Source: a virus
Taxonomy: Duplodnaviria > Caudoviricetes
Direction: 5' to 3' (one strand)
IMG/VR virus record: IMGVR_UViG_3300017987_000115
Location: 1 to 53,459 of that record
Length of the DNA stretch: 53,459 nucleotides
In this document: positions 8,376 through 49,718 of the stretch, one piece after another
How positions within the stretch are numbered: the stretch's first letter is position 1
Layout of the letters: every line of letters starts with the position of its first letter
Position numbers and translations under genes: made by a program
Notes under the pieces: model-generated
What the model saw: the letters and a program-made list of their open reading frames with translations, nothing else
What the model was told of the DNA's origin: nothing
Database searches by the model: none

Positions 8376-11109
8376 AACAAGTAGAGTTCCGGGGTCGATG
8401 GCTCCGCTAAAGAATCCAATGCTCAACCGTGAGACAGCAATTTATTCTCTCGAGATATGGGACCTAAACAAACTCACGCCCTACAATCCCGACTCTCTGG
8501 TGCGAAAGAAGGGCATGCCTGTCTACCGTGAGATGGTGCAACGTGACGATGCCGTTAAGAGTGCACTGTTTACAAAGAAAGCCTCGCGTATGGCATCGGG
8601 CTGGGATTACTTGCCTCCAGACCCTGACGTTGAACCTCGTGGCGAGGAAATGGTCGCTTTTATAAAGCACAATTTCGAATGGATGAAAGGTACAGACTCT
8701 CAGATGATCTGGGATGTCATGGGTGCATTCGAATTTGGCTTTTCTGTTCTGGAAGAAAACTGGGCTGTTATAAAAGACGGTTCAAAATGGGAAGGAAAGA
8801 TCGGGACGTGGTCCATTAAGTCAAAAGACTCTGCCGACTTTGATCCTAAGATTGACGAATATGGTAATATGACTGGGATCATTCAAGGAAAAGGCACACA
8901 GTATCACCGAGACCTTGACGTTGAGAAGTTTATGTACCATGTAAACTTCTTTGAACGTGGGAACTATTACGGAAATAGCGACCTGCGTCCTGCGTATCGT
9001 CCTTATTATGTTAAGGATATGCTTACACGGTTCATGGGTATCTACTTTGAGAAGTATGCCATGCCGATCGCCATTGGAAAGTATCCTGTAGATCTCGTAT
9101 CTTCCGAAGAACCCAAGAGCGAGGGACAAGGTACAAAGAGTATGGCCGAGGCAGAGCGGGAACGTTTTGAGAAGGTACTCAAAAAGATCGCTACTGCAAC
9201 TGCGATGGTTATACCCAGCGACTATGAAGTTGACTTTGCGGAGTCACGTGGCCGTGGTGAGTCTGGATACTTAAACGCTTTTCGATATTTGGATATTGCG
9301 ATTGCACGAGCGATCTTGCTTCCTGCGCTTGTTACAGGGACGTCTGATACTGGTAAAGGAACGTTGGCTCAGTCACGTACTCACCAAGAGAGTTTCATGA
9401 ATGTGGTCATGATGCTTGCAGATCCTATCGAGACTACAATCAACGAGCAACTAATAAGAAAGCTTATAGATATTAATTTTGATAAACCAAAAGCTTACCC
9501 AAAGTTTAAATTCCGTGACTACGACAAGCAGATCTCGCAAAGGGTAGTTGACATATTTGATAAGTTAATTGCACGAGGTGTCTTGGATGAGTCAGACGCC
9601 AAATGGATTAGAAACCAAATCGGACTTCCTGAAAGACCGGAAGACGCTCCGCCTCCTAACTTCAGGTCTAGAGGCGAGTATGGTCCAGTGTCGACATCTG
9701 GAGGAGAGATCCTCGCTCCGGGTGGAGCTCCTGCAAAAGCTCCTACTCCCAGGCCTCGTCGGACCAAGAGAAGTTCTCCTGCGAAAGAGAAAGAAGAGTT
9801 CGCAGAAACATTAGGTAGAAATAACGGTCCGTATTCTGCAGGTCCTGGAGGAAAGTGCAAGTGCACAAAATGCGGGTATGAAATGTCCCATGATGCAGGT
9901 ACACCATGCACAAAGTTGAAGTGTCCGAAGTGTGGAGGTAAGATGCTTCGGAGCTCTCAATTCTCAGAGCAGCACTGCGATAGCATTGTAACTCTCGAAA
10001 GAGAGGAAGGATGTTATCCTGAAACACGTTCGTTCCTGGAAAACTCCGTTGCTGCCATGATGGAAGCAGAGTGTCCTCCTGAAGACTGGCCTGGAAAGAT
10101 GAATGCAACAGACTACATAGTTCATATCAATGATATATTTGAGTTTGCTGAAAAGACTGGACGAAAGTCAGATGCTGAACGGTTTAAAGCAGACTTAAAT
10201 ATGAAGCCAAGTCGTAAACTTAGTACACCTGAGAAGCGTGTTGATTACAACGGTATTCAAGCTTCGTGGCGTGCACTTATTGAACAGACTTTGGCTACAA
10301 TGACTAACAACATGGCACTTCTAAAAGATCAGATGCTTCCAAAGGTGAGGTCTTTGTATGAGAGAGGCGACGATCAAGCGTTTGATAGTTTGCAAGTTCC
10401 TTCAAAACCGATCTCTACGTTTAAGAATGCAGTAAATCAAATGTTTCTGACAGACTTTGTTCTTGGCTATAATAACTCTATCCAAGAGGTTGAAAAAGCA
10501 ACGGGCAAGGATCTTTCACAGTTTGCGGAGGTCGATGGAATACTCGCAGATCCGGCCGAAGCTCTTCAAGCTCTAACTCTCAAACGTCCTCGTCTTCGCA
10601 GGTTCCTGAAAACTTATTCCAGACGTTCCTTCACCATAGCTGGTGTTGAGAGAGCGAGGATTTTAAATGAGGCAAGACGGGTACTTGAAATCGGAGTTCA
10701 AAGAGGCTACTCTACTGACAGGGTCGTCCGTGAACTTGGAGCAGTGCTTGACAAATATACAGACCGACTTGTCAAGGGAGAGGTCGTCAAGCCAGGACGC
10801 CTTCAAACAATCGTACGTACTAATCTTAGTGAAGCGTTTAATACCGCCAGGCGTATGGCATTCGAAGACCCTGCGATATACCCTTATATAGGAGCGTATC
10901 AATATTCAGCTGTCATAGATCGAAAGACAACTGAGATATGCTTGGATTATGACGGTACGACTCGTCCAACCGATGACGCGATCTGGGATGTCATCTGGCC
11001 ACCTAATCACTTCTCATGTCGTTCAATGGTAGTGGCTTGGATGGAGGACGAGAACTTCACGTTTACAGATTATCCAACGTTGCCTCCACAGGAGGGTTTT
11101 GGAGTATGA
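8368..11109 (+). CDS. portal protein (Mu gp29/DUF935-like) fused to a Zn ribbon and a Mu gpF-like head morphogenesis domain
   Basis: FEFGFSVLE, EKYAMPIAIGKYP, TLAQSRTHQE portal motifs; C-terminal RLQTIVRTN...YSAVID...PPNHFSCRS gpF motif. Confidence 0.88.
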   Translation: MPKTSRVPGSMAPLKNPMLNRETAIYSLEIWDLNKLTPYNPDSLVRKKGMPVYREMVQRDDAVKSALFTKKASRMASGWDYLPPDPDVEPRGEEMVAFIKHNFEWMKGTDSQMIWDVMGAFEFGFSVLEENWAVIKDGSKWEGKIGTWSIKSKDSADFDPKIDEYGNMTGIIQGKGTQYHRDLDVEKFMYHVNFFERGNYYGNSDLRPAYRPYYVKDMLTRFMGIYFEKYAMPIAIGKYPVDLVSSEEPKSEGQGTKSMAEAERERFEKVLKKIATATAMVIPSDYEVDFAESRGRGESGYLNAFRYLDIAIARAILLPALVTGTSDTGKGTLAQSRTHQESFMNVVMMLADPIETTINEQLIRKLIDINFDKPKAYPKFKFRDYDKQISQRVVDIFDKLIARGVLDESDAKWIRNQIGLPERPEDAPPPNFRSRGEYGPVSTSGGEILAPGGAPAKAPTPRPRRTKRSSPAKEKEEFAETLGRNNGPYSAGPGGKCKCTKCGYEMSHDAGTPCTKLKCPKCGGKMLRSSQFSEQHCDSIVTLEREEGCYPETRSFLENSVAAMMEAECPPEDWPGKMNATDYIVHINDIFEFAEKTGRKSDAERFKADLNMKPSRKLSTPEKRVDYNGIQASWRALIEQTLATMTNNMALLKDQMLPKVRSLYERGDDQAFDSLQVPSKPISTFKNAVNQMFLTDFVLGYNNSIQEVEKATGKDLSQFAEVDGILADPAEALQALTLKRPRLRRFLKTYSRRSFTIAGVERARILNEARRVLEIGVQRGYSTDRVVRELGAVLDKYTDRLVKGEVVKPGRLQTIVRTNLSEAFNTARRMAFEDPAIYPYIGAYQYSAVIDRKTTEICLDYDGTTRPTDDAIWDVIWPPNHFSCRSMVVAWMEDENFTFTDYPTLPPQEGFGV

Positions 11110-34594: not shown

Positions 34595-34615
34595 GTTTGG
34601 CCGTTAAAATTCCTG

Positions 34616-34644
34616 TTGCTTTTGTTGGTGTGTTGTTGTATAAT
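34616..34644 (+). promoter_or_regulatory. sigma70-type promoter
   Basis: cctgTTGCTT-N17-TATAAT. Confidence 0.75.
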
Positions 34645-34673
34645 AACGTTTGTCATTGAAGGGAGATTGTAAA

Positions 34674-34880
34674 ATGAAAAGACTGGTTCGTTATTTGTTT
34701 TCTTGTTTGATTTGGAAGTGCGAAGTTTCTTTTCATGAAGAGACAGGCACGTGGTTCTATAATTGCACAAGTCGATTTAAGAAGAGAAAACCTTTTCCAC
34801 GTTGTGTTTCAAAGCATGGAACCAATTTTGATTCGAAGCGTGAAGCTTTGGGTGCCATGAAGAGGGCACTGGTAAATTAA
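34674..34880 (+). CDS. small hypothetical protein
   Basis: GGGAG SD; directly after the promoter. Confidence 0.6.
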   Translation: MKRLVRYLFSCLIWKCEVSFHEETGTWFYNCTSRFKKRKPFPRCVSKHGTNFDSKREALGAMKRALVN

Positions 34881-34889
34881 AACTGGAGA

Positions 34890-35522
34890 GTGAAAGTGAA
34901 GTTAAAGAAGACTGGTAAGAAAAAAACAAAAACCCAAAAGTCCAAACGCAAAAAAAGTAAACTTACAACACGTAAGACTTTTTCTGTCACGGACGATAGC
35001 CACGGACCTCCATACAACGTATGGGAAAAGATGAATCTATTCATCGATACATGTCATGGTCTAAAAGGCAAAAACCTAAGAAACTTTGTCAGGCAAACGT
35101 ATCACGATTTATTTGCAATTAGACCTGGTCCGAATATTCCAACTGCTCTTGTAAGAGCTGCATGTGGATACGAACTTCAATATAGAGGCTTCATTGAGTA
35201 TGGTATGGAGCATTTGATTTCTGACAGGTTTAAACAAAATAGAGAGTGCTTGCTTTTGTTAGACGTTAATAAGTTGCATCCTAAGTTAGGCGACATATTA
35301 CGTATTTCAATACGTAATGAAGACAAGCAATTGGAAAGGGAAGCTGCAAAAGAGGAACGTCGGCAAGCTAGAGAAAAACGTAGAGAAGAAAGACTTAATA
35401 AAAGGAAGGTGGCTAAAGGTTCTGAAAAGATTTTGAAGAAGCATAGGAAAAAGAAGCGTAAGAAAAAGAAGAAAGAAAAGACTGTTAGTGAGTACGCTTC
35501 ATTGTTGGAAGGTCTGAAATGA
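34890..35522 (+). CDS. hypothetical protein with polybasic termini
   Basis: GGAG SD; GTG start. Confidence 0.7.
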   Translation: MKVKLKKTGKKKTKTQKSKRKKSKLTTRKTFSVTDDSHGPPYNVWEKMNLFIDTCHGLKGKNLRNFVRQTYHDLFAIRPGPNIPTALVRAACGYELQYRGFIEYGMEHLISDRFKQNRECLLLLDVNKLHPKLGDILRISIRNEDKQLEREAAKEERRQAREKRREERLNKRKVAKGSEKILKKHRKKKRKKKKKEKTVSEYASLLEGLK

Positions 35523-36019
35523 GACTGGTAAAAGCGTACGCAGGTATTGGATCGAGAGAGACGCCAGATCCGATATTGGACTACATGAAAAACGTTGCCG
35601 TACTACTGGCCAATAACGGATATCTGTTGCGGTCTGGTGGCGCAAAGGGAGCTGACTCTGCTTTTGAAGAAGGGTGTGATCGAGTAAAAGGAAAGAAAGA
35701 GATATTTTATCCAGAGCGTGCTACAGATGCAGCGATTAAGCTAGCTTCTGACTTGCATCCAGCATGGCATAGGTGCAGTTCTTACGCTAGAAAACTACAC
35801 GGTAGAAATGTGCAGATTATAAAAGGGAGGTACTATCCTCGCAAAATTCACTCTGTAAAATTTGTAGTATGTTGGCAAGATCCGAACAAGAAGTTTGGTG
35901 GAACACGTATGGGAATGAGTGTTGCAGAACGGTTTGGTATAGATGTATGGAACCTTGCAATAGTAGAACTTCGTGAAGCGTTTGAGCATCACATAATTAA
36001 TAAGTTAGGGAAAGTGTGA
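35519..36019 (+). CDS. SLOG-family (DprA/Smf-like) protein
   Basis: YAGIGSRETP, LRSGGAKGADSAFEEG, GGT motifs. Confidence 0.85.
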   Translation: MRLVKAYAGIGSRETPDPILDYMKNVAVLLANNGYLLRSGGAKGADSAFEEGCDRVKGKKEIFYPERATDAAIKLASDLHPAWHRCSSYARKLHGRNVQIIKGRYYPRKIHSVKFVVCWQDPNKKFGGTRMGMSVAERFGIDVWNLAIVELREAFEHHIINKLGKV

Positions 36020-39018: not shown

Positions 39019-40236
39019 ATGAGCAAGAAGGACAAACTCAGAGAAAAGATAAGAGAGTATGGTTTGCCTGGTCCGCTAATGGACTGCAGTGTAGACTTAA
39101 TCCAAAGAACGCTTGCAAAGCGTGTATGGGAATTGGAGCATCCAGATAAAAAGTTTCCAAAGCAGTACGATACTATGCTTGCTAAGGACGCTAGCAAACT
39201 TTCACGTGAAGAGTTTGAAGAAAAGTTCAGCAACGAAAACTGGATAGCCGAAACAAAGCTCAACGGGTGTAGGGGATTACTTATAATCAAGCCGTTGAAA
39301 AACGGAAAGCAAAACGTTCGGATACTTTCAAGACGTCGGTCTGTCAAGACCTTTCGGTATGAAGAGAAGCAAAACAAGCTTCCGCAATTCAAAGACTTTA
39401 AATGGCATGGCGTTAAAGGGTTGACAATTATAGACGGGGAACTTTATCATCCAGAGCAACGGGCAGTGACAGCGTCTGGCACGCAAACAGAAAGTAGACT
39501 TCAAAACGCAACGTCTATACTGAACTCGCTTCCTAGCAAGGCACTGAAGACCCAAAAGAAAATTGGATTTTTGCGTTTCTGTGCTTTCGACGTTTTGTAT
39601 TACAACGGAATGGATCTTCGGAAGCTTCATCTTGAGGAAAGGAAACACTACCTGTCAAAGTTCGGAGCCAACAACGAGTGCTATGTAACTGACATTGATA
39701 TGATGAAGGGTATGATGGTTAAAGAAAGAAACGTCTTCTTTGAGATCATAGGCTTTACAAGATACTTTGACCTTCACAAGCACAAGATCAACAAAAAGAA
39801 GGCAAGCTTCTTCAAGTACTTCATGTCAGAGGTTGAAGACGGCGAGGAAGGTATAATGTTGAAGCGTCTTGACTCTACATATCAATCTGGAAAGAGGTCC
39901 AAAGACTGGTACAAAATGAAGGCTCAACAGACGTTTGACGCCTTCGTAACCGGTTTTCTCCCAGGGCAGGGCCACTTGGCTGGGTTGGTTGGTTCGGTAC
40001 GTTTCTCGGCATATGTAAATGGCGAAGAAAAGATTATTGGAAAGGTCGGAGCTTTTCCACTCAAGGTTCGACAACGCATGACCGGAAAAAATGGAAAGTT
40101 GAAAAAGAAGTGGTACGGTAAGGTTGCCGAACTTCGAGGAGCAGACGTGACCAAGAATAAAAGACTGTTCCACTGTCAGCTTGTACGATGGAGAAAAGAC
40201 AAAGACCCGGACGACTGTGTTGTGGAATTTAAGTAA
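39019..40236 (+). CDS. lig: ATP-dependent DNA ligase
   Basis: ETKLNGCR (motif I), IIDGEL, AFDVLY, EGIMLK, WYKMK; C-terminal OB domain. Confidence 0.93.
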   Translation: MSKKDKLREKIREYGLPGPLMDCSVDLIQRTLAKRVWELEHPDKKFPKQYDTMLAKDASKLSREEFEEKFSNENWIAETKLNGCRGLLIIKPLKNGKQNVRILSRRRSVKTFRYEEKQNKLPQFKDFKWHGVKGLTIIDGELYHPEQRAVTASGTQTESRLQNATSILNSLPSKALKTQKKIGFLRFCAFDVLYYNGMDLRKLHLEERKHYLSKFGANNECYVTDIDMMKGMMVKERNVFFEIIGFTRYFDLHKHKINKKKASFFKYFMSEVEDGEEGIMLKRLDSTYQSGKRSKDWYKMKAQQTFDAFVTGFLPGQGHLAGLVGSVRFSAYVNGEEKIIGKVGAFPLKVRQRMTGKNGKLKKKWYGKVAELRGADVTKNKRLFHCQLVRWRKDKDPDDCVVEFK

Positions 40237-40247
40237 GGAGAAGAGAG

Positions 40248-40520
40248 ATGATAGGTAAAGTAATTAAATGGGAGCAGTTGAATTATGAAGGGACCGTGTT
40301 TCAATTTACGTACGGGCCTTTTATCTTTCAGGTGAACACGCCGTGTCCCACTATATCGATCTACATGCCAGACGCTTGTTTCCTACCCAAGAGTTTGATC
40401 AATAATAAAGAAAGAGTTTTGGTGCGTATCTTTGAACGCAACTTGGGTCAAGTATCGTGGAAGTCTTTCAATGAAACTGTTGAAAGGTTTCTGAAGACTG
40501 TCTATGGAACAGACTGCTAG
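40248..40520 (+). CDS. hypothetical protein
   Basis: AAGGAG SD. Confidence 0.65.
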   Translation: MIGKVIKWEQLNYEGTVFQFTYGPFIFQVNTPCPTISIYMPDACFLPKSLINNKERVLVRIFERNLGQVSWKSFNETVERFLKTVYGTDC

Positions 40521-40543
40521 GTTGTTTAGTTAAGGAGAGTACG

Positions 40544-40948
40544 ATGTCGGAAGAAAGACAAACATTCAAACTACGTTTCCAACCGGGTGACCTTGCTTGG
40601 ATCGTTAACAAAGACGGTTGGGTTCAGCTTGTTATAGTTCGTTCTGTTCATTGTTGTGAAGACGGATGCACATACTCGACTATCGGCATGTGTGGCGAAA
40701 GTATAAAGCTCAAAGACCGCAATGTAACAGATGCAGATATACTCCACTTTGACGATTGCAAAATACCTGGAGAATGGTGGAGGACAAACCTTTACTATGC
40801 AAAGGAAAAACTTATCGCCCATTGGAACGAAAACTACAAAAATCGTACAGACTTTGGCGATACAGAAGAAGATGAATGGATTGGGAAAGAAGATTATCCA
40901 ACTTATAGGCCAGGCGAACATCCTACAAAGGTGGTGGATCCGAGATGA
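40544..40948 (+). CDS. hypothetical protein (SH3-like FQPGD start)
   Basis: AAGGAG SD. Confidence 0.65.
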   Translation: MSEERQTFKLRFQPGDLAWIVNKDGWVQLVIVRSVHCCEDGCTYSTIGMCGESIKLKDRNVTDADILHFDDCKIPGEWWRTNLYYAKEKLIAHWNENYKNRTDFGDTEEDEWIGKEDYPTYRPGEHPTKVVDPR

Positions 40949-41937
40949 AGTCTTTACTGGATAAAAAGAAGAAAAAGTATTCGGTCGAAAAAGACGGCAT
41001 TACACAAGGTCTGCTTCAGACCTGGATGAGCTGTCGTTACAAAGCACGTTTCTTTTTGGACGGCTGGCGAACAGTTGACACCAGAATGGCGCTGATTTTT
41101 GGTTCTCTTATTCACGGCATCAACGAGGCTGTATACAAAAAGGTTCGAAAAGGAAAAACAAAACATCCGCCTTCGACTAAAAAGATTAAGTCAATCACCA
41201 ACAAGGCTTCCAAGATTTGGATCAAAGACAATCCAAGAGCAAGCAAACGGGCAAGGGAAATGTTGGCTGAGTCTGTAATGATAGCCAATATTTTAATGCC
41301 GTTGTATTTTGAACGTTGGGAGAAAGATGATTTCAAAGAAGCAGTATGGCAAGAGGTGGAAGGAAAGTTTAATCTTCCTGTAAAATTGAAAGACGGAAGA
41401 CGTACAAGGTTCAGAGGAATGATAGACGGGTCTTTTCTTTCAAAAGGCCTTAACAAATTGTGGTTATTTGAAACTAAAACAGGTACAAGAATCAACCCGT
41501 TGAACCTTACAGACCGTTTGGCTTTTGATCTACAAGTTGGTTTCTACTTAAACGCTCTGTACAAACTTAAGGAAGCAATTCCTGAAGGCTTTCTTTACAA
41601 TAACATTCGTCGTCCAGAGCTTCGTATAAGAAAGAAAGAGTCTCTAAAACAATTCGCAGATAGGATGGAAAACGATATACAAAAAAGACCTGATTGGTAT
41701 TTTGTAAGGCTTCCGATATCTATATCAAAGAAAGAGTTTAAAGCAATACGCAAACAATTGTTTGTTATTGTACGAGAGTTTTATGATTGGTACGAAGGTA
41801 AGCTCGGACACTACAGATGTTCAGGACAGTGCGAAGGAAAGTACGGACGATGTGGATATCTTACAATGTGCGCAAACGGTGGAAAGCCGACTCCTATATA
41901 TGTAAACTCTGGTTTTAGTTATAGGGAGCTTGACTAA
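40945..41937 (+). CDS. PD-(D/E)XK exonuclease, Cas4/AddB-like with Fe-S cysteines
   Basis: SCRYK, GSLIH, GMID, FETKT, QVGFY, and C-terminal C...C...C.Y...C. Confidence 0.85.
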   Translation: MKSLLDKKKKKYSVEKDGITQGLLQTWMSCRYKARFFLDGWRTVDTRMALIFGSLIHGINEAVYKKVRKGKTKHPPSTKKIKSITNKASKIWIKDNPRASKRAREMLAESVMIANILMPLYFERWEKDDFKEAVWQEVEGKFNLPVKLKDGRRTRFRGMIDGSFLSKGLNKLWLFETKTGTRINPLNLTDRLAFDLQVGFYLNALYKLKEAIPEGFLYNNIRRPELRIRKKESLKQFADRMENDIQKRPDWYFVRLPISISKKEFKAIRKQLFVIVREFYDWYEGKLGHYRCSGQCEGKYGRCGYLTMCANGGKPTPIYVNSGFSYRELD

Positions 41938-42149
41938 TGAAAGCAAAATTGACTGGGTGGAAGTTTGAGATAGGTGAAGAAGCAAAAGTAGATGAATGGC
42001 CTGTGAAAGTCATAAGTAGATCTTTCTCTTATATAGAGAACAGTGGAGGGTTTGAGTCAATAGAAACTTATTACTGTGAGAACATTTCAGAAGACTCTGT
42101 TTGGTCTTATGAAAACTTTGATGTTGAAGATATGGAGAAGAAAAAATGA
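41937..42149 (+). CDS. small acidic hypothetical protein
   Basis: TAATG coupling. Confidence 0.65.
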   Translation: MKAKLTGWKFEIGEEAKVDEWPVKVISRSFSYIENSGGFESIETYYCENISEDSVWSYENFDVEDMEKKK

Positions 42150-42973
42150 AGGTTGTAGTCTTAGGAGCTGGTCCGGTTGGTTGTATTGCCAAGAGGCGTT
42201 TAAACCTTGTGAATATCAACGGTAATCTTTTCGACTCTATGAGCTATGACGAAATTCACAAAAGAACATTTAACCATGGAGCTCATTATCTTTGGAAACC
42301 TATTGAAGGTTTTTCTGTTAAACGTTGTAGAATTATTACAACTGTTGACGGTGATCAGGCTGTTGAAGAAAGCGTGCGTCGTTACAAAACAAAGGTTGGT
42401 CGATACGAAGAAGGGCGTGATTGGTCTAGACAGTTCAAACCGAAGTCAAAAGGATATCGAATAATATCTTTCCCTGACGTTGTAATTAACCACCATCACA
42501 AAGCCAAACGTATTGACGTGGTAAACAAGACTGTCACATTTGCAAACGGAACAGAAGACCACTTTGACGTTATTATAAGCACAATTCCTCTGAACATCTT
42601 AGTCCAGATCTCTGGTATGGTGGACAGACCGCAGTCGGTATTTGAATATCGTGAAATATACGTATATGAAACTCCGAGTATGCGTTGTAAGAACGAAGAT
42701 ATGGTTGTAGACTATGACTCGTCACCTACAGAGTCTGTATACAGACGTACATATCGAGACGGAAAATGTCATGCAGAGTCATTGAAGAAGTTTGACAAGC
42801 CTGACGCTATTTTAACGCCTGGTAAGATATGGACAAATGAGGAGACTAGAGAATGGGTAGAGCGTTTAAAAAGTTACAATATACATTGCTTTGGACGGTT
42901 CGGTACTTGGGAGGAAGATGAACTCTTGCACCAGGCGTGTGAAAAAGTTCAGAACTTTGTGGAGGGACTGTAA
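42146..42973 (+). CDS. FAD-dependent oxidoreductase (UDP-galactopyranose-mutase/protoporphyrinogen-oxidase-like fold)
   Basis: N-terminal VVLGAGPVG, GAHY, FDVIISTIPL, C-terminal FGRFGTW. Confidence 0.8.
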   Translation: MKVVVLGAGPVGCIAKRRLNLVNINGNLFDSMSYDEIHKRTFNHGAHYLWKPIEGFSVKRCRIITTVDGDQAVEESVRRYKTKVGRYEEGRDWSRQFKPKSKGYRIISFPDVVINHHHKAKRIDVVNKTVTFANGTEDHFDVIISTIPLNILVQISGMVDRPQSVFEYREIYVYETPSMRCKNEDMVVDYDSSPTESVYRRTYRDGKCHAESLKKFDKPDAILTPGKIWTNEETREWVERLKSYNIHCFGRFGTWEEDELLHQACEKVQNFVEGL

Positions 42974-43046
42974 TGTCAGGTTTCAGAGACCTTTCAATTA
43001 TATATGCAGTGACGTCATTGTCGCCGTTTATACTGTGGAGGACAAC

Positions 43047-44009
43047 GTGAAAGAGTTTGAAAAGATTTGGAAAGACCAGAGAGACTTTAATAAGAACTTC
43101 TTTCCAGCGCCAGAAACTTTCGACGATATGTCTGCTCAGACCAAAGAGCTAATACTTCATATGATGTCTGAGTGTGATGAGCTGTTGAGAGCAACGTCTT
43201 GGAAAATTCATAGGCGCAATAATAACAAGCCAAATCCTGAACAAGTGCGTGAAGAGCTTACAGACATATTCAAGTATTGGATTTCACTATGCCAGGTATG
43301 GGGAGTTTCACCGAAGCAAGCTGTCGAGGATTACTGGAGGAAAAGTATGGTAGTCCGCCAACGATATTCTGAAGAGTTTGTAATGCGTTTGAGCAAACAC
43401 CGGATAGCTCTCTTTGATATAGACGGTGTTATAGCTGACTATTGTAATGGATTTTTAAGTTGGTTGATACGAGAAGCCTCTGCGGATTCGTTAAAGTCGT
43501 TGGCTGATAGGGCAAGAAATCTTGTAGATTCTCAAGTATGGATGTGCGCCGAGTCGTTGAAAATTGGTGAAGGAAAGTGGCAGGAGCTTAAACATAGGTT
43601 CAGAGTTACAAGAGGAAAAGTCTATTTGCCTGTGTTTAAAGACTCTCTCTATCTTCTAGACCTTTGTAGGCAAAAGGGATTTAAAATCGTTCTTTTGACC
43701 AGTAGGCCGATTGACAGGTATCCTAATATATACACAGATACTCTGGAATGGCTCAATAAGCATTCAATTCCATTCGACGCCATCTGGTGGTCGTCCGATA
43801 AAGACGAGATGCTTCTCTCCAGAAACTTGCTACCTAATATTGATTTTATGGTTGAAGACAATCTTCGATACGCAGATCAAATGGCGAATATCGGAGTCAA
43901 GGTTTATTTAATCAATAGATCAAATAAACCTATAGATGTTGGACGTAAAAAGTATAAGCGTCCTGGACAAATTAAAATAATCAAATCATTAGAAGAGGTG
44001 AAGGTATGA
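43047..44009 (+). CDS. dimeric dUTPase/MazG-type NTP pyrophosphatase fused to a HAD 5'-nucleotidase-like domain
   Basis: GGAGG SD plus GTG; SECDELL...WK...EELTDIFKY; FDIDGVIADY, LLTSRP, K, VED HAD motifs. Confidence 0.85.
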   Translation: MKEFEKIWKDQRDFNKNFFPAPETFDDMSAQTKELILHMMSECDELLRATSWKIHRRNNNKPNPEQVREELTDIFKYWISLCQVWGVSPKQAVEDYWRKSMVVRQRYSEEFVMRLSKHRIALFDIDGVIADYCNGFLSWLIREASADSLKSLADRARNLVDSQVWMCAESLKIGEGKWQELKHRFRVTRGKVYLPVFKDSLYLLDLCRQKGFKIVLLTSRPIDRYPNIYTDTLEWLNKHSIPFDAIWWSSDKDEMLLSRNLLPNIDFMVEDNLRYADQMANIGVKVYLINRSNKPIDVGRKKYKRPGQIKIIKSLEEVKV

Positions 44010-44224
44010 CTGGACATCGAGATCACGAGTTTGTTGTAATTGAAAGTAAAAGGCTGGACTTACTTTTGAAGTCTGCAGGATGCCTAGTAACAGGCGACCT
44101 TACAGTGCCTGAATGGAGAGCTAGACTTAAAAAAGCAGTCGCAGACGTTAAAAAGAACGGAAGGATACTATCAGAGGTTATAGATGACGCTCTGAAAAAA
44201 CTTTTAGTGGAGGAAGAAAAATGA
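44006..44224 (+). CDS. small protein sharing the N-terminal MxGHRDH with the ThyX homolog
   Basis: ATGA coupling on both sides. Confidence 0.7.
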   Translation: MTGHRDHEFVVIESKRLDLLLKSAGCLVTGDLTVPEWRARLKKAVADVKKNGRILSEVIDDALKKLLVEEEK

Positions 44225-45279
44225 ACGGGCATAGAGATCATGCAAGGTTTACAGGGGAGGCTCCTAAGACTCCAATCGATAGGGGTCCTTTTGGACTGAA
44301 AGTTTCTCTTGATATGTGGGGACCGAAAGAAAACTTGATGGCGCACATATGGAATGAGCTAACAGCCAATTGGGGCAACGAACCTGCAAGAGTTGAAAAA
44401 GACGAAGATCTTACAACTCCGGAGATGGAACACGTGTACGAGGCGTTTGCAGGTAAAACTCTGTCACAGGTTCTTGAAGGCGTTCACTTTTGGTTCACTA
44501 TCGACGGTGTGACAAGAGCGTGCACACACCAGTTGGTTCGGACACGTATTGGAGCTGCTATGATGCAACATGGCGGACGTGATAACGACTGGCGACATCG
44601 TCCGTGGACAATGCCGGAAACGATTCATCGTGCGTGTAGTTATTTTGATAGAGAGCCTGCGGAGAAGTTTAAGTACGATGACCGCTCTTATCAAATGCAT
44701 CCGTGTGTAAGAGATCGAGAGGCTTTGGACAATTATATATACGGATCTGACGTAGACGGCGATATGGTTAAGTTAAAGCTCAGGGACCGCGTCTTTGAAG
44801 TTGTAGATGAATGCAAACAGTTATATGCAGCACTTGTTGATGCAGGTATTCCGTGGCAAGATGCTCGGAGGGTACTTCCCATTGGCCTGCAGACTTACAT
44901 TCATATCAACTACAACTACCTTGCTTTGAAAGGCGTGTTGGCAAATCGACTCGAGCATGTGATGGATTGGGAGATTAACTGCGTGTCTCAGCTGATGTTA
45001 CGTGAAATCAAAATGAAGTGCCCGTCAATATTCTCCAAGAACCTCGGTTCGCATTCTGATCGAATGAAGAAAGCAGCGTTTGAGAATATGGAGTCATGGC
45101 CTCCTGACGGAAAGTACGCTTCTGATAAGATGGGTGACGTGAGAACCCACAATCGAACGCAGATGCCGTTTTGGGTTCTTTCTCCAGAATCAATGGAGGG
45201 TGGTCCTATCGAATGGATACCTACCAATGGAATATATCCCAAAAATCTTAGACCAAAAGGAGAGAATAATGTCAAGTAA
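44221..45279 (+). CDS. thyX: divergent ThyX-family flavin-dependent nucleotide-modifying enzyme
   Basis: F.IDGVTRACTHQLVRTR, Y..LV..GIP.QDAR.VLP, WEI; signature residues are altered. Confidence 0.85.
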   Translation: MNGHRDHARFTGEAPKTPIDRGPFGLKVSLDMWGPKENLMAHIWNELTANWGNEPARVEKDEDLTTPEMEHVYEAFAGKTLSQVLEGVHFWFTIDGVTRACTHQLVRTRIGAAMMQHGGRDNDWRHRPWTMPETIHRACSYFDREPAEKFKYDDRSYQMHPCVRDREALDNYIYGSDVDGDMVKLKLRDRVFEVVDECKQLYAALVDAGIPWQDARRVLPIGLQTYIHINYNYLALKGVLANRLEHVMDWEINCVSQLMLREIKMKCPSIFSKNLGSHSDRMKKAAFENMESWPPDGKYASDKMGDVRTHNRTQMPFWVLSPESMEGGPIEWIPTNGIYPKNLRPKGENNVK

Positions 45280-46114
45280 AAAGAAGAAGACTACAAAGAA
45301 AAAAGCTTCGACGGGTCCGGTACGTTTACCTACAGAACGTTCCAAGCCCAAGCAAAAACTTTCTTCTTATTCCATACTTTTGTATGGTGAGAAGAAGGTC
45401 GGAAAGACTACAATGTGTGCCGAGCCTGAGGCCACTTTGTTTGTACCTTTTGAGCCAGGCACAAAGGCTTTGTCGGTATTTGAAATGAAACCAGAGGACT
45501 GGGGACACTTCAAAAAGATTGTCAATGCATTATGCAAAGACAAAAAGAACAGGTTCAAGACTGTTGTCATCGACACTGTGTCAGTTGCTTACAAACGTTG
45601 TTGGGAGTGGGTTTGCAAGCAGCATGTCATTGGACACCCGTCTGAGGAGAAGTGGGGCAAGGCCTGGACTGACATCTCAGACGAGTTTACAAAGACGTTC
45701 GACAAGCTAATTCATTCTGGAAAAGGCGTTATATTCGTCGCCCATTCTCACACCCAGAGAATCGAGACTGTCGACGACGAGTATGACCATATCTCTCCTG
45801 CACTCCCAAAACAAGCGAACGAATACTTCTCTGCCATTGTCGATATCTGGGCATACTATGGTTATCGAAAAGGCAAAAGGTACCTTACGATTAACGGAGA
45901 CGAAAGCGTTGCAGCTGGTCAGCGTATACCTGGTAGATTCTTGACACCAAAAGGCAAGAGACTTAAAAGGATTTACATGGGTGATAACTCTAAAGAAGCC
46001 TACAGTAATTTTGTTAAGGCTTTTAACAATACATACAAGCCACCAAAGGAGGTGACGAAGTCAAAAGTTAAAAAGACCAAGAAAAAGAGTCTCAAAAAGA
46101 AGTCCAAAAAATAA
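45269..46114 (+). CDS. AAA (Sak4/AAA_24-like) ATPase
   Basis: LLYGEKKVGKTT, VVIDTV, FVAH. Confidence 0.85.
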   Translation: MSSKKKKTTKKKASTGPVRLPTERSKPKQKLSSYSILLYGEKKVGKTTMCAEPEATLFVPFEPGTKALSVFEMKPEDWGHFKKIVNALCKDKKNRFKTVVIDTVSVAYKRCWEWVCKQHVIGHPSEEKWGKAWTDISDEFTKTFDKLIHSGKGVIFVAHSHTQRIETVDDEYDHISPALPKQANEYFSAIVDIWAYYGYRKGKRYLTINGDESVAAGQRIPGRFLTPKGKRLKRIYMGDNSKEAYSNFVKAFNNTYKPPKEVTKSKVKKTKKKSLKKKSKK

Positions 46115-46129
46115 AAGGAGAAAAGTGAA

Positions 46130-47080
46130 ATGAGTCTCAAGAGCATTTTGAAGAAGGGTCAGAAGAAATGGAAGAAGGCCCGCAAAGACGCCGAGAATAT
46201 GGGGAAGTCCCAGGTGGAAGACGGAAGGTACGTTGCGAAACTTGTTGAGGTAAAGCCCGGCAAGTCTCAGGCAGGACGCGATCAGATTGTGTTCACGTAC
46301 AAGATTCTGGAGGGCAAGCCCAAAGGCAAGAAGGTTTCTTCCTTCGAAGGAATTGAAACCGAAAAGAACCTCATGTTCCTCGCAAACAAGATTTCGAAAT
46401 TTGGATACGAGGTTCCCGAAGATGCGACTGAAATTGTCGACGTGGTCGAAGAGCTTCAGAAAGAGAAGCCGACATGTCGCATCCGTGTCAAGGACAACGA
46501 CGGCTTTGCCAACGTTTATCTTGACGGTCTCGTAGACGAGGAAGAAGTCGAAGAGTCCGAAGAAGAAGAAGAAGAAGAAGAAGACGAAGACGAAGACGAA
46601 GAAGAGTCCGAGGATGACGACGAGGAAGAAGAGTCGGAGGACGAGGATGAAGACGAAGACGAAAACGAAGAAGAGTCCGAAGAAGAAGAGGACGACGAGT
46701 CCGAAGAAGAAGACGACGAAGATGAAGATGATGAAGAAGATGACGAAGAAGAGGAAGAAGAAAACGAAGAAGAAGAGGACGAAGACGACGAAGAAGGGGA
46801 CGATGCCGACGAAGACGAGGATGAGGAAGAGGAAGGCGAAGAAATCACAAAGGGCATGAAAGTTCTCGTCAAGAAAGGCAAGAAGAAGCTTCCCGGAAAG
46901 GTCACCAAGATTTTTGAAAAGGACGAAGCGGTCAACGTCAAGCTCGATGATGGCAAGCTCTTGAAAAAGGTTTCCATCGACAAGCTCGAAGAGTACGACG
47001 AAGACGAAGTTCCCGAGGAGCCCAAGAAAAAGTCAAAGGGCAAAAATGGAAAGTCCAAAGGCAAGAAAAAGAAAAAGTAG
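46130..47080 (+). CDS. DUF669-type ssDNA-binding-like protein with a ~100 aa D/E tract and SH3/KOW-like C-terminal domain
   Basis: DGRY.AK......SQAGR.QI...Y.I.EG OB-like N-terminus next to the AAA gene. Confidence 0.7.
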   Translation: MSLKSILKKGQKKWKKARKDAENMGKSQVEDGRYVAKLVEVKPGKSQAGRDQIVFTYKILEGKPKGKKVSSFEGIETEKNLMFLANKISKFGYEVPEDATEIVDVVEELQKEKPTCRIRVKDNDGFANVYLDGLVDEEEVEESEEEEEEEEDEDEDEEESEDDDEEEESEDEDEDEDENEEESEEEEDDESEEEDDEDEDDEEDDEEEEEENEEEEDEDDEEGDDADEDEDEEEEGEEITKGMKVLVKKGKKKLPGKVTKIFEKDEAVNVKLDDGKLLKKVSIDKLEEYDEDEVPEEPKKKSKGKNGKSKGKKKKK

Positions 47081-47101
47081 CGTGAGCGAAACTTCTTTAA
47101 T

Positions 47102-47130
47102 GGGAGGGAGGCTTCGGCCTCTCTCCCTTC
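47102..47130 (+). terminator. terminator-like hairpin with a UUCG loop
   Basis: GGGAGGGAGGC-TTCG-GCCTCTCTCCC. Confidence 0.7.
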
Positions 47131-47161
47131 TGCAATTCTAAATTATAATTAGGAGTTCAAA

Positions 47162-47779
47162 ATGGAGCCTTTGAAAGTTTTCAAACCTATGCCAATGAAT
47201 ATGAGGGAGCGTCTCACAGACGAGTTTTTCGTAGAGTGCAGGTCTATTCTGGAAAAGAAGGGTAAAGATTACTCTCCAGACGACGAGGCGTTTGGCGAGA
47301 TCATAAAAATGGCACGTGCAACTAACACGTCGCCAGAACAGGTTATGTTTATCTACATGTTCAAGCACTGGTCTGCTATCCAGAGCTATGTGAAAAGAGG
47401 ACGTGTAGAGTCAGAAGAGATTCACGGAAGACTGAGTGACCTTGCAAACTACGCTGCACTAATGTCTGCTTTTATAAAGTTTTACAGGTCGGGAACTGTA
47501 AATGGCAAATCCAACGTTGAAATTTTTGATGACGATTACTATAACTTTAAACACGGTGACAAGGTAAAACTTAATCCAACCGTAAAGTTTGAAGAAATCA
47601 ACGAAGACCTTATGGACGCGTATGCTTGGACGATTGAACAGGGTGTGAAAGAGTGCAGTGATTATGTTGTTGAAGGAAAATCGTTCATAGACTCTCAAAT
47701 AAAAGAACGTCCTAAGTTCATGAAACTAAAAGAATTTCCAAATAGGGTTTTTCTTAGAAGATTGTTTGTAAGGGTTTAA
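47162..47779 (+). CDS. nucleotide-modification-associated domain 1 (Nmad1/DUF1599-like) protein
   Basis: KKGKDYS....F...ESEE....L.DLANYA.L pattern. Confidence 0.75.
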   Translation: MEPLKVFKPMPMNMRERLTDEFFVECRSILEKKGKDYSPDDEAFGEIIKMARATNTSPEQVMFIYMFKHWSAIQSYVKRGRVESEEIHGRLSDLANYAALMSAFIKFYRSGTVNGKSNVEIFDDDYYNFKHGDKVKLNPTVKFEEINEDLMDAYAWTIEQGVKECSDYVVEGKSFIDSQIKERPKFMKLKEFPNRVFLRRLFVRV

Positions 47780-47780
47780 C

Positions 47781-49718
47781 ATGGCACGTCTTAAATTAAA
47801 AAGAAAGATTCGTGCTGAACAGTCCGGAATGAACAAGCTTCGTGGAAAGTATATAGCTCTTGACACGGAAACTACTGGACTGATTCCGTACGGACCTTGC
47901 AAACACTGGGGCTTCTATCCTGCCAGACCTTTTGCCTTTTCTTTTTGTGACTGGTACGGTAACAAGGCTTATATACGTTGGGAAGTCGATCCAAAAACAC
48001 GTCGTGTTATACAAGAGAAAAAGACTGCTAAGATGATACAAGACCTTCTTGATAAGAAGGGAGTTGTAATCATATTCCACAACGCTTCATACGACTTGAA
48101 GATGATACAGTTTTCAGGTTTTGAGATACGCGGCAAGTATCACGACACTATGATTATGGCTCACGTTGTGACCGGAGGAAGTGAATTTACGTATGCACTT
48201 AAACCTATTACAGACAAGTTTTTTGACTTCCCACAACAAGACCAGAAAGATCTAATTGAAAGTGTCAGGTCAGCGTGGAAGCAAAACAAAAAAGTGCATC
48301 CTGAGTGGAAGTTCGCAGATAAAGCGTTCCAAGGAAGGCAACCTGTACAAGCAGACTATTGGATGGGTAATAGAAGGCTTTGCAAAAAGTACGCTGTTCA
48401 AGACGCAGTACGTACAATGTTGCTTTATCAGTTTTTGATAAAGAAGCTGAATAAAGATAAAGTACTTAAAGACGTTTACAGAAGAGAGATGCGGCTCCTT
48501 CCTGTTCTTGAAAAAATGGAACTGAAAGGTATGATGGTTCGCAAAGAAAAAGTTCTAGAACTGATAGAATACTATGAGAACTATATGAAAAAGCAGTTGA
48601 GGAAAGCAAATAAAGAAGGTGGTGGTAAAGACCTAAACTTCAGAAGTCATAAACAGTTAGTTAACGTATTCTTTGAGATACGGAAACACAAGCCAGAATT
48701 CTTTACACCTGGCGGAGCTCCCAAGATGGATAGCAAAGTACTTGGACGTCTCGCTGAGAAGGACAAGCTTGCCAAAGCTATTCTGGAGTATAGAACTGCA
48801 GCCCACGCTATTTCAGGTTTCCTTGAACCGTACACTAGGTTTTGGGTACCGGAAGATGGCCTGATGGTTTTACATCCAAACTTTAGACAAGTTGGAACTG
48901 TTACGGGACGGTTGTCTTGCTCAGATCCAAACTTGATGACAGTTTCTTCTGCGTCAACAGGTCGTCGTCGTTCAGATGTTGTAGAGCGTCCTCGTGAAGC
49001 TTTTGGACCTAGACCTGGTACCGTTTGGTACCTACCGGACTATTCACAGATTGAAGTGTGGCTTTTCTCTTTTATGTCTGGTGAGAAGGGTATGCAAAAA
49101 GCCTTGATGAGCGGATACGACTTCCATGGCTCGGTTGCAAATGATGTTTGGGGCAAAGAGCAAAACTTTAAAGAACGTTATAAGTATTGGAGGAAAAGAG
49201 CTAAAATTGTAATGTTCTGTAAGTTGTACGGAGGCGGAGCCAAAGCTGCTTCCAGACTTTTGGAGTGTTCGGTTGAAGAGGCAGAGGACTTTATATCAAA
49301 GTTCGATATGAGGTTTCCAGGTGTCAATAGATTTCAAAGACGTATGATCAACAGGGCAAACAGGCAGGGCTTCGTAAGAAATAAGTTTGGAAGGATTTAT
49401 TACTTACACCACAGCCAGTCTTATCGTGCAGTCAATTACCTTATACAAGGAACTGCCGCAGACATTTTGAAGAACGCTTTGTACTATGTTGATAAGATGT
49501 TGAAAGAGAAGTGGCCTGGTTGCAGTCTTTTGCTTCCTTTGCACGATGAAATATGTGTCGAAGTTCCTCTCGAGTACCACAGCAAGAGGCTTATGAGAGA
49601 AGTAATATTTGAAATGCAAAGAGACTCTGACAGGGTTGGTGTTCCAAAGCCGTTACCTGTTGGAATGAAAATATGTAAGACCCATTGGGATGAAACTACA
49701 GAAATTGAGAATGTATAA
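47781..49718 (+). CDS. polA: DNA polymerase family A (3'-5' exonuclease plus polymerase)
   Basis: DTETTG, HNASYD, TGRLS, DYSQIE, AK...F...YG, NYLIQGTAAD, LHDE. Confidence 0.95.
   Translation: MARLKLKRKIRAEQSGMNKLRGKYIALDTETTGLIPYGPCKHWGFYPARPFAFSFCDWYGNKAYIRWEVDPKTRRVIQEKKTAKMIQDLLDKKGVVIIFHNASYDLKMIQFSGFEIRGKYHDTMIMAHVVTGGSEFTYALKPITDKFFDFPQQDQKDLIESVRSAWKQNKKVHPEWKFADKAFQGRQPVQADYWMGNRRLCKKYAVQDAVRTMLLYQFLIKKLNKDKVLKDVYRREMRLLPVLEKMELKGMMVRKEKVLELIEYYENYMKKQLRKANKEGGGKDLNFRSHKQLVNVFFEIRKHKPEFFTPGGAPKMDSKVLGRLAEKDKLAKAILEYRTAAHAISGFLEPYTRFWVPEDGLMVLHPNFRQVGTVTGRLSCSDPNLMTVSSASTGRRRSDVVERPREAFGPRPGTVWYLPDYSQIEVWLFSFMSGEKGMQKALMSGYDFHGSVANDVWGKEQNFKERYKYWRKRAKIVMFCKLYGGGAKAASRLLECSVEEAEDFISKFDMRFPGVNRFQRRMINRANRQGFVRNKFGRIYYLHHSQSYRAVNYLIQGTAADILKNALYYVDKMLKEKWPGCSLLLPLHDEICVEVPLEYHSKRLMREVIFEMQRDSDRVGVPKPLPVGMKICKTHWDETTEIENV

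Follow-up and report, generated by a model that had tools for sequence, protein, structure and literature searches.

A phage ThyX-like flavoenzyme with a rewritten, conserved active site that probably yields an altered thymine for phage DNA

Known thymidine hypermodification in phage DNA begins with an enzyme of the ThyA family (PMC8989533), and the modified-pyrimidine pathways of phages worked out so far, as presented in the available text of two sources, all start from a ThyA-type enzyme (PMC8989533, PMC13390438). Examples are the ThyA-family hydroxymethylases, i.e., the T4 enzyme acting on deoxycytidine monophosphate (dCMP) and the deoxyuridine monophosphate (dUMP) 5-hydroxymethyltransferase of M6/ViI-type phages, which provide a C5-modified pyrimidine nucleotide before replication (PMC8989533). 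Here we describe a ThyX-like gene from an uncultured phage (Duplodnaviria; Caudoviricetes), represented by IMG/VR record IMGVR_UViG_3300017987_000115 (53,459 bp, completeness estimate 86%); this whole stretch is referred to below as the window, and the protein as the query. The query has the ThyX fold and the nucleotide-binding residues of ThyX, and carries a new invariant set of residues in place of those on the folate and carbinolamine side; judging from its sequence, it probably yields an altered thymine for phage DNA. The proposed role resembles that of the ThyA-family hydroxymethylases, whereas the fold is unrelated (no PF00303, Thymidylat_synt, match is found in the window or in five related records) and the cofactor would be a flavin. 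The nearest precedent on the ThyX side is PolB, the polyoxin ThyX paralog that methylates UMP/dUMP at C5 (4p5a/4p5b), where the ThyX fold is recruited beyond the synthesis of deoxythymidine monophosphate (dTMP) as a DNA precursor (PMC5954106, available in part); PolB, however, is bacterial and still methylates.

ThyX (flavin-dependent thymidylate synthase, FDTS, PF02511, EC 2.1.1.148) is a homotetramer with shared active sites and bound flavin, and makes dTMP from dUMP, methylenetetrahydrofolate, and NADPH. In ThyX, Ser88 and Tyr91 are strictly conserved and critical, and lie at hydrogen-bond distance from the hydroxyl of the flavin carbinolamine; mutation of Tyr91 makes flavin oxidation ~1000-fold slower; His53 stacks on the folate pterin and, together with Tyr91, keeps the reduced flavin in the OFF position; and Arg174 activates dUMP (accessible text of PMC8316439 and PMC11940539). 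Mutants at H53, E144, and R174 have been solved together with folate, according to PDB titles. The Thermotoga maritima residue numbers used here are taken from these two papers and from PDB titles, with an inferred shift of 12 positions in the chain index.

A preliminary description of the window, made from its sequence, had called the query a ThyX homolog, and both profile and structure searches bear this out. Pfam Thy1 matches residues 56–269 with 77 bits (cut-off 24.8), and PHROG thymidylate synthase families match as well; the strong PDB matches of the AlphaFold2 model (predicted local distance difference test, pLDDT, 84.4; alignment input of 33 relatives) are all ThyX, with the best Foldseek E-value (E) of 7.6e-9. 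Structural comparison with T. maritima ThyX (TM0449), which the same description had proposed, gives Z 13.4 with 205 aligned residues for 1o26_A in VIA-align, and Mycobacterium tuberculosis ThyX (3gwc_B) gives Z 13.5, root-mean-square deviation 3.5, and 210 aligned residues. The matches span model residues 17/22 to 283/320, the one with T. maritima stopping near residue 283, so that the fold is common over query residues 22–283. PolB follows with a structural Z of 13.2 and a weak sequence match (E 0.035). The query falls short of the NCBIfam thyX equivalog TIGR02170, scoring 62.8 bits vs. the cut-off of 87.9.

Active-site residues were mapped in a MAFFT alignment. The search of 1.84 billion proteins yields 960 proteins at E 1e-3, 100 at 1e-10, and 30 at 1e-30; its 150 best served as representatives, and the 139 of at least 190 amino acids (aa) were aligned together with two phage ThyX-like proteins. 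Sequences with His at both diagnostic positions are considered canonical (31 of 139), and show the pattern G-HxSVxEH, RHRxA-SYSQxSQRY, EDAR..LP, and R....AQWEIR; 93 representatives are intermediate between the canonical and variant forms. All strings quoted in the preliminary description are found in the query: RTRIGAAMMQHGGRD at residues 107–121, KTLSQVLEG at 79–87, ARRVLP at 215–220, and MDWEIN at 248–253.

The query departs from the RHRxxSxxxxSxRY motif (His79, Ser83, Ser88, Arg90, and Tyr91 in T. maritima) at four positions: His is replaced by T108, the first Ser by A113, the second Ser by G118, and Tyr by D121, so that of the canonical motif only three Arg (R107, R109, and R120) are retained. 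The earlier statement that the RHR His, both serines, and the Tyr are lost thus holds, with a different register: the ungapped one drawn by eye put the two serines at A112 and H117 and the Tyr at R120, and the MAFFT alignment places a one-residue insertion after R109 of the query. On the folate side, L81 and G87 take the place of the two His conserved in the GHxSxxEH helix, in agreement with the absence of the folate-stacking His noted before; which of the two positions corresponds to His53 follows the numbering as we take it to be. At position 81, all 31 canonical sequences have His, and 10 of 12 sequences of the subfamily have Leu. The HMMER alignment also pairs SVLEH...RHR of M. tuberculosis ThyX with QVLEG...RTR of the query, and aligns T. 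maritima ThyX without gaps over query residues 186–273. Here, E144 of T. maritima (the Glu of EDAR) corresponds to Q213, and the Gln of AQWEIR to D249, which bears out the described change to MDWEIN. The residue equivalent to R165 is altered, as is the RHR His, both of which bear on the binding of flavin adenine dinucleotide (FAD).

The nucleotide side shows the opposite trend. As had been claimed, the substrate-contacting Gln and Arg residues and AR.VLP are kept: Q104, R107, R109, R120, R216 (the Arg of DARRVLP), and R243 (the equivalent of the dUMP-activating Arg174) are all present, and the motifs THQxVR, DAR..LP, and WE are shared with ThyX. Among 45 canonically conserved positions (at least 80% in the 31 sequences), the query keeps 32 and differs at 13. 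By sequence, then, the query is altered where the ThyX pocket handles folate and the carbinolamine, and retains the nucleotide side. The suggestion that the protein binds a pyrimidine nucleotide is likewise supported as far as residues can indicate, given the ThyX fold and the full set of dUMP-holding Arg and Gln.

The replacements are themselves conserved. In an alignment of 33 relatives, 49–61% identical to the query, R107, R109, and positions M115 through H126 are invariant, i.e., the replacement loop RTR..MQHGGRDNDWRHR is the same in all of them, including the polar or charged H117, R120, D121, N122, D123, W124, R125, and H126. Because the loop is invariant across relatives of such moderate identity, the variant residues look, at the sequence level, like a newly formed active site maintained by selection and not like decay; a pseudogene or chance ORF (open reading frame) is ruled out by the same invariant residues. 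A catalytically dead ThyX that binds only nucleotide or flavin, e.g., with a regulatory or scaffolding function among the replication proteins, would account for the disappearance of residues critical for ThyX catalysis; we consider it highly improbable, since the invariant replacements are polar or charged (H117, R120–H126) and the substrate-binding arginines are all present.

Two further regions set the query apart from ThyX. The N-terminal peptide GHR(P/D)H (MNGHRDH in the query) has its H-R-x-H invariant in the 33 aligned relatives, and the same relatives share S277, S279, D280, W293, P295, K298, R308, H310, Q314, P316, W332, T335, G337, and P340 in the C-terminal extension (Table 1). A CxxCxH...CxxC insert is seen in 44 of 120 listed relatives.

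The subfamily is found only in phages, all of them uncultured, in the searches of IMG/VR and prokaryote genomes. The protein search gives 319 relatives at E ≤0.001; the 120 matches listed are 45–61% identical to the query and 292–510 aa in length, many of them coming from contigs of 50–77 kb. IMG/VR contains 55 loci (59 of 158 pattern matches confirmed), while 185,579 prokaryote genomes, one per species, contain none (22 pattern matches, 0 confirmed). In the cultured-phage collection, no record covers 80% of the query and the best identity is ~30%; similarly, the DNA polymerase of the window is at most 28% identical to that of any cultured phage. Sequencing runs matching the phage DNA number eight, from six studies, all seawater and sediment metagenomes with no RNA run listed; the phage is marine and recurrent.

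We favor, at a probability of about 0.55, a neofunctionalized ThyX-fold flavoenzyme making a non-thymine C5-substituted dUMP. A group other than a plain methyl would be attached to C5 because the folate-side and carbinolamine residues are exchanged for a new conserved set. The enzyme would bind a pyrimidine deoxynucleotide, most likely dUMP, against the flavin, activate its C5 against the reduced flavin, and deliver a different group or end the reaction differently; the modified dUMP may then enter phage DNA.

The main rival is plain dTMP synthesis. Here, a divergent phage ThyX would still make dTMP from dUMP, with D121, H117, W124, and L81 standing in for Tyr91, Ser88, and His53, and its neighbors would be salvage helpers (a dUTPase feeding dUMP, a nucleotidase, and a flavin reductase). 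Because other thymidylate synthases are absent from the phages of this group, we retain this explanation, although we place it on the unlikely side. The query scores over the Pfam Thy1 cut-off, has the full ThyX fold and every dUMP-binding residue, the R174 equivalent included, and is the sole gene of thymidylate-synthase type in the window and the five related phage records; T. maritima ThyX carrying H53A was still crystallized with folate (4gtf title); the 93 intermediates among 139 representatives form a gradient; and the Joint Genome Institute (JGI) annotates the relatives as thymidylate synthase. On the other side, Ser88 and Tyr91 are strictly conserved and critical in ThyX (PMC8316439, PMC11940539, as far as their available text goes); 13 of the 45 canonically conserved positions changed together and then froze; the query does not attain the thyX equivalog threshold; and the flavoprotein resembling UDP-galactopyranose mutase, the glycosyltransferases of relatives, and the phages with proven modified thymidine, all considered below, have no role in plain dTMP synthesis. 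The preliminary description had proposed that the protein may not perform dTMP synthesis dependent on methylenetetrahydrofolate. This is plausible, as Ser88, Tyr91, His53, and Glu144 are all changed and the gene context agrees; it is weakened by the folate taken up by H53A, by the residues that could substitute for the lost ones, and by the lack of any other thymidylate synthase in these phages.

The gene context is conserved. The order is SNF2 helicase, RuvC-like protein, exonuclease, small flavoprotein, MazG–HAD fusion, ThyX-like protein, Sak4-like ATPase, DUF669 protein, PolA, and primase, and in 31/31 sequences whose upstream DNA measures 2.2 kb or more, the window included, the ThyX-like gene comes directly after the flavoprotein and the fusion. 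All long ORFs of the window are on the plus strand. In the ThyX-like gene, the ATG comes after a GGAGG ribosome-binding site and overlaps the stop codon of the ORF before it. The features of the locus are listed in Table 1.

Table 1. Features of the ThyX-like locus in the window, variable genes of its relatives, and flavoprotein matches in cultured phages.
Feature	Position	Strand	Basis and remarks
Small flavoprotein, 275 aa, GxGxxG, predicted UDP-galactopyranose-mutase/amine-oxidase fold	42146..42973	+	AlphaFold2 and Foldseek; ~1.2 kb upstream of the ThyX-like gene
Fusion of MazG/dUTPase_2-like NTP (nucleoside triphosphate) pyrophosphatase and HAD phosphatase	43047..44009	+	Frame open from 42891; likely start GTG 43047, 5 nt past GGAGG
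72-aa ORF between fusion and ThyX-like gene	44006..44224	+	ATGA overlaps at both ends; N-terminus MTGHRDH
ThyX-like flavoenzyme gene (P0001)	44221..45279	+	ORF, 352 aa; Pfam Thy1; ThyX fold
Helix residues 79–87 KTLSQVLEG, folate-side in ThyX	44455..44481	+	Both conserved His replaced (L81, G87)
Rewritten active-site loop RTRIGAAMMQHGGRDNDWRHR, residues 107–127, replacing RHRxxSxxxxSxRY	44539..44601	+	Mapping vs. 31 canonical sequences
Residues 213–220 QDARRVLP	44857..44880	+	Ungapped phmmer alignment to T. maritima ThyX; canonical counts
Residues 243–253 RLEHVMDWEIN	44947..44979	+	R174-equivalent Arg present; AQWEIR replaced by MDWEIN
C-terminal extension, ~78 aa, not in canonical ThyX	45043..45276	+	Alignment of relatives; T. 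maritima structural match ends at ~283
Variable tailoring island inside the replication module of relatives	L027:7627-8400 and 8584-9873; L047:7252-9659; L007:5421-6173		
Flavoprotein profile match near ThyX-like gene	SN gp67		E 4.9e-6
Flavoprotein profile match near ThyX-like gene	F8		E 5.2e-6
Flavoprotein profile match near ThyX-like gene	14-1		E 2.2e-6
Flavoprotein profile match near ThyX-like gene	ECML-117		E 3.3e-5
Flavoprotein profile match near ThyX-like gene	KandZ		E 2.9e-5
Flavoprotein profile match	Streptomyces phage Dryad		E 1.3e-13; ThyX-like gene ~7 kb away

The small flavoprotein is modeled with high confidence (AlphaFold2 pLDDT 92.3), and its closest fold is UDP-galactopyranose mutase (4dsg_B, Foldseek E 5.6e-12, TM by query 0.64); the two share the N-terminal GxGxxG, invariant in this family, and C-terminal GRFGxW-like motifs, with a weak sequence match. 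The differences are considerable: 275 aa vs. ~470–510, with much of the substrate domain absent and identity of 13–16%. In the protein Atlas, the flavoprotein falls into Amino_oxidase family structure rows and into amine-oxidase or protoporphyrinogen-oxidase-like clusters, as well as into several virus-only clusters; a Pfam scan gives no family at E 1 or better. Prediction of a complex between the ThyX-like protein and the flavoprotein gives a score of 0.06 (mark 0.32). The fusion, whose start we take from the DNA and from homologs, shows weak Pfam matches to dUTPase_2, MazG, and HAD, the HAD motif FDIDGV, and PHROG matches to the nucleotide pyrophosphohydrolase, 5'-3' deoxyribonucleotidase, and polynucleotide kinase families; a PDB sequence search with it returned nothing useful. 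In the favored scheme, the fusion may strip a canonical deoxynucleoside triphosphate (dTTP or dUTP) to monophosphate and nucleoside, thereby lowering the competing nucleotide, while the flavoprotein may provide or modify the group that is attached, or maintain the flavin in its reduced form.

Variable tailoring genes are seen in the relatives. A GT-A glycosyltransferase is present in 25 of 42 sequences that span the ThyX-like to DUF669 interval, mostly between Sak4 and DUF669, and far upstream in L038. It resembles Pfam TAGT (22.6 bits, cut-off 27.5) and PHROG 842, beta-glucosyl-HMC-alpha-glucosyltransferase (E 1.8e-6); a PDB sequence search with it gave nothing useful. A radical SAM/SPASM enzyme occurs in the module of six loci, three of them identical copies. 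L047 alone has a carrier-protein (phosphopantetheine-carrier) domain fused to the C-terminus of the ThyX-like protein, and also holds a methyltransferase-like ORF. Under the favored reading, the glycosyltransferase of many relatives would then decorate the base, and the phage of the window would represent a minimal set without one.

An alternative chemistry would be that of a dUMP (or dCMP) hydroxymethylase using flavin and folate, an analog in the ThyX fold of the T4/SPO1 ThyA-type enzymes, in which water instead of hydride would add to the exocyclic methylene intermediate and the base would be glycosylated where a glycosyltransferase is present. A MazG-type pyrophosphatase beside a hydroxymethylase repeats the logic of T4 gp56/gp42. 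The glycosyltransferase of the relatives resembles those acting on hydroxymethylcytosine DNA, its best family adding sugar to modified cytosine in T6-type phages (PMC13390438, available in part), and the changed residues correspond to Ser88, Tyr91, and His53, to which control of the carbinolamine and of the OFF state of the flavin is ascribed. We nevertheless consider a hydroxymethylase quite improbable: both His53 and Glu144 of the folate site are changed, which fits folate dependence poorly; the flavoprotein partner would have no role; the Pbunavirus products described below are far heavier than hydroxymethyl-deoxyuridine; and the window has no glycosyltransferase.

Among cultured phages, non-canonical ThyX proteins are found in ECML-117 (Wifcevirus), KandZ (Plotvirus), and Pbunavirus SN; these have RTR or RQR, lack the folate-side His, and have Ala or Phe in place of Tyr. 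The profile of the family aligns with ThyX-like SN gp61 over 179 columns at 97.8% probability (hhalign), and the ECML-117 gene is 28% identical to the query (tblastn); the ECML-117 protein itself has matches in 424 phage records, of which 292 belong to Pseudomonas phages. The flavoprotein accompanies these genes, with a match within ~7 kb of a non-canonical ThyX-like gene in five of six cultured phages, where Dryad is scored by distance only and not by motif; a structural search of viral models adds a match in Pseudomonas phage PA5 (E 2.3e-9). HAD phosphatases lie in the same blocks as the ThyX-like genes (HAD_PNKP in ECML-117 and gp59 in SN). The set of non-canonical ThyX, flavoprotein, and HAD phosphatase beside replication genes is thus common to the window, Pbunavirus (SN gp61, gp67, gp59, and their F8 and 14-1 homologs), ECML-117, and KandZ; the cultured phages differ in gene order, in having MazG unfused, and in a DnaE-like polymerase, compared to PolA in the window. 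None of five records (F8, 14-1, SN, ECML-117, and KandZ) contains a gene of the ThyA family.

Hypermodified thymidine is proven in two of these phages. In the virion DNA of F8 and 14-1, about a quarter of the thymidine gives way to new nucleosides of 362 and 390 U, which occur in the TG context; they are read as a sugar-alcohol and a cyclized sugar derivative (PMC12191111, a 2025 preprint). In its available text, genes are not assigned, and ThyX and thymidylate are not mentioned. Simple arithmetic gives the same two masses: deoxyuridine plus pentose minus H2O plus 2H is 362, and deoxyuridine plus hexose minus H2O is 390.

These masses allow a more specific form of the favored reading, a donor swap, which we hold to be rather unlikely. 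In place of the folate methylene, the aldehyde carbon of a sugar would be bound as an iminium at N5 of the reduced flavin and then transferred to C5 of dUMP, giving a 5-(polyhydroxyalkyl)- or C-glycosyl-deoxyuridine, and the flavoprotein together with the HAD phosphatase would prepare the sugar. This is the covalent flavin chemistry of UDP-galactopyranose mutase with sugars and of ThyX with formaldehyde (PMC8316439, available in part). If true, the donor swap would be a new reaction class for the modification of DNA bases and would assign the missing genes of Pbunavirus.

Several observations weigh against a neofunctionalized ThyX that makes a modified dUMP. A second thymidylate synthase is found neither in the window nor in the five related phage records, and the lost functions could have passed to D121, H117, and W124, which are new and invariant. 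In the window and four near-complete relatives, a kinase of the thymidylate-kinase family and a dCMP deaminase are each seen in 0/5; without such a kinase, a nucleotide modified at the pool level would depend on host kinases. The TG context in F8 and 14-1 is suggestive of a reaction that acts on DNA and not on pool nucleotides. The cultured ThyX-like relatives are distant (~28–30% identity over 180–200 residues), none of them, the Pbunavirus ThyX included, has the MQHGGRDNDWRHR loop, and the Pbunavirus flavoprotein matches are weak (21–22 bits). Family matches of the glycosyltransferase stay under curated cut-offs, and tailoring genes, such as those for a glycosyltransferase or a radical SAM enzyme, are absent from the window. 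The phage DNA was assembled from ordinary metagenomes, hence any modification does not block sequencing. Finally, for this protein and phage the favored chemistry is argued from sequence, model, and gene context.

Full-text literature searches, with supplementary files outside their scope, found no paper that gives a ThyX homolog a role in DNA modification or describes the motif variant. If the favored reading is true, a ThyX-fold enzyme in this role would be a second, flavin-based root of DNA hypermodification, and the genes of the module would be candidates for the pathway behind hypermodified thymidine in Pbunavirus phages used for therapy. It could also mark modified DNA in uncultured phages by sequence, which bears on restriction evasion, host range in phage therapy, and sequencing bias. 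The question is directly testable with cultured phages (F8, 14-1, ECML-117, and KandZ) and recombinant protein.

In SN, gp68 and gp71 were considered as homologs of the flavoprotein and rejected: BLASTP of the flavoprotein gave no match to SN gp68, KandZ gp64, or ECML-117 AFO10510, hhalign gave none to SN gp71 or gp68, and the true SN homolog is gp67. In Dryad (L062 6001-8423), the flavoprotein homolog gp60 stands beside phosphatase gp59, followed by gp58 of 338 aa; gp58 was rejected as ThyX-like (BLASTP E 0.62, no Pfam family), and the Dryad ThyX-like gene is at 34606-35034 of the record. A short-chain dehydrogenase (adh_short) is encoded in ECML-117 (L060 8601-9284, 109 bits) and KandZ (L061 1156-1881, 63 bits), and is not found in the module of the window.

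The N-terminus of the 72-aa ORF, MTGHRDH, echoes that of the ThyX-like protein. Elsewhere in the window and 55 loci, this pattern is seen only at ThyX-like N-termini and in a stray 37-aa frame of L044, and none of the 55 loci has a homolog of the ORF; by sequence, a partial duplication or a docking peptide is conceivable. Twenty other ORFs of the window mostly have no match in Pfam and PHROG, and no transfer RNAs were found in it. Among the ThyX-like representatives, one of 700 aa (P0197) carries an intein, with Hint and intein-splicing domains after Thy1 position 165. The region 40000-49000 of the window is covered at 81–100% of sampled words in six runs of four seawater or sediment studies, four of these runs being flagged as possible sources of the record. 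In the middle of the DUF669-type protein (46130-47080, plus strand), which probably binds single strands, ~100 Glu/Asp residues follow one another without interruption. A 166-aa protein of the replication module (35519-36019, plus strand) matches PHROG 768, "DprA-like DNA recombination-mediator", at E 3.6e-40, with a weak match to Pfam DNA_processg_A (18.5 bits).

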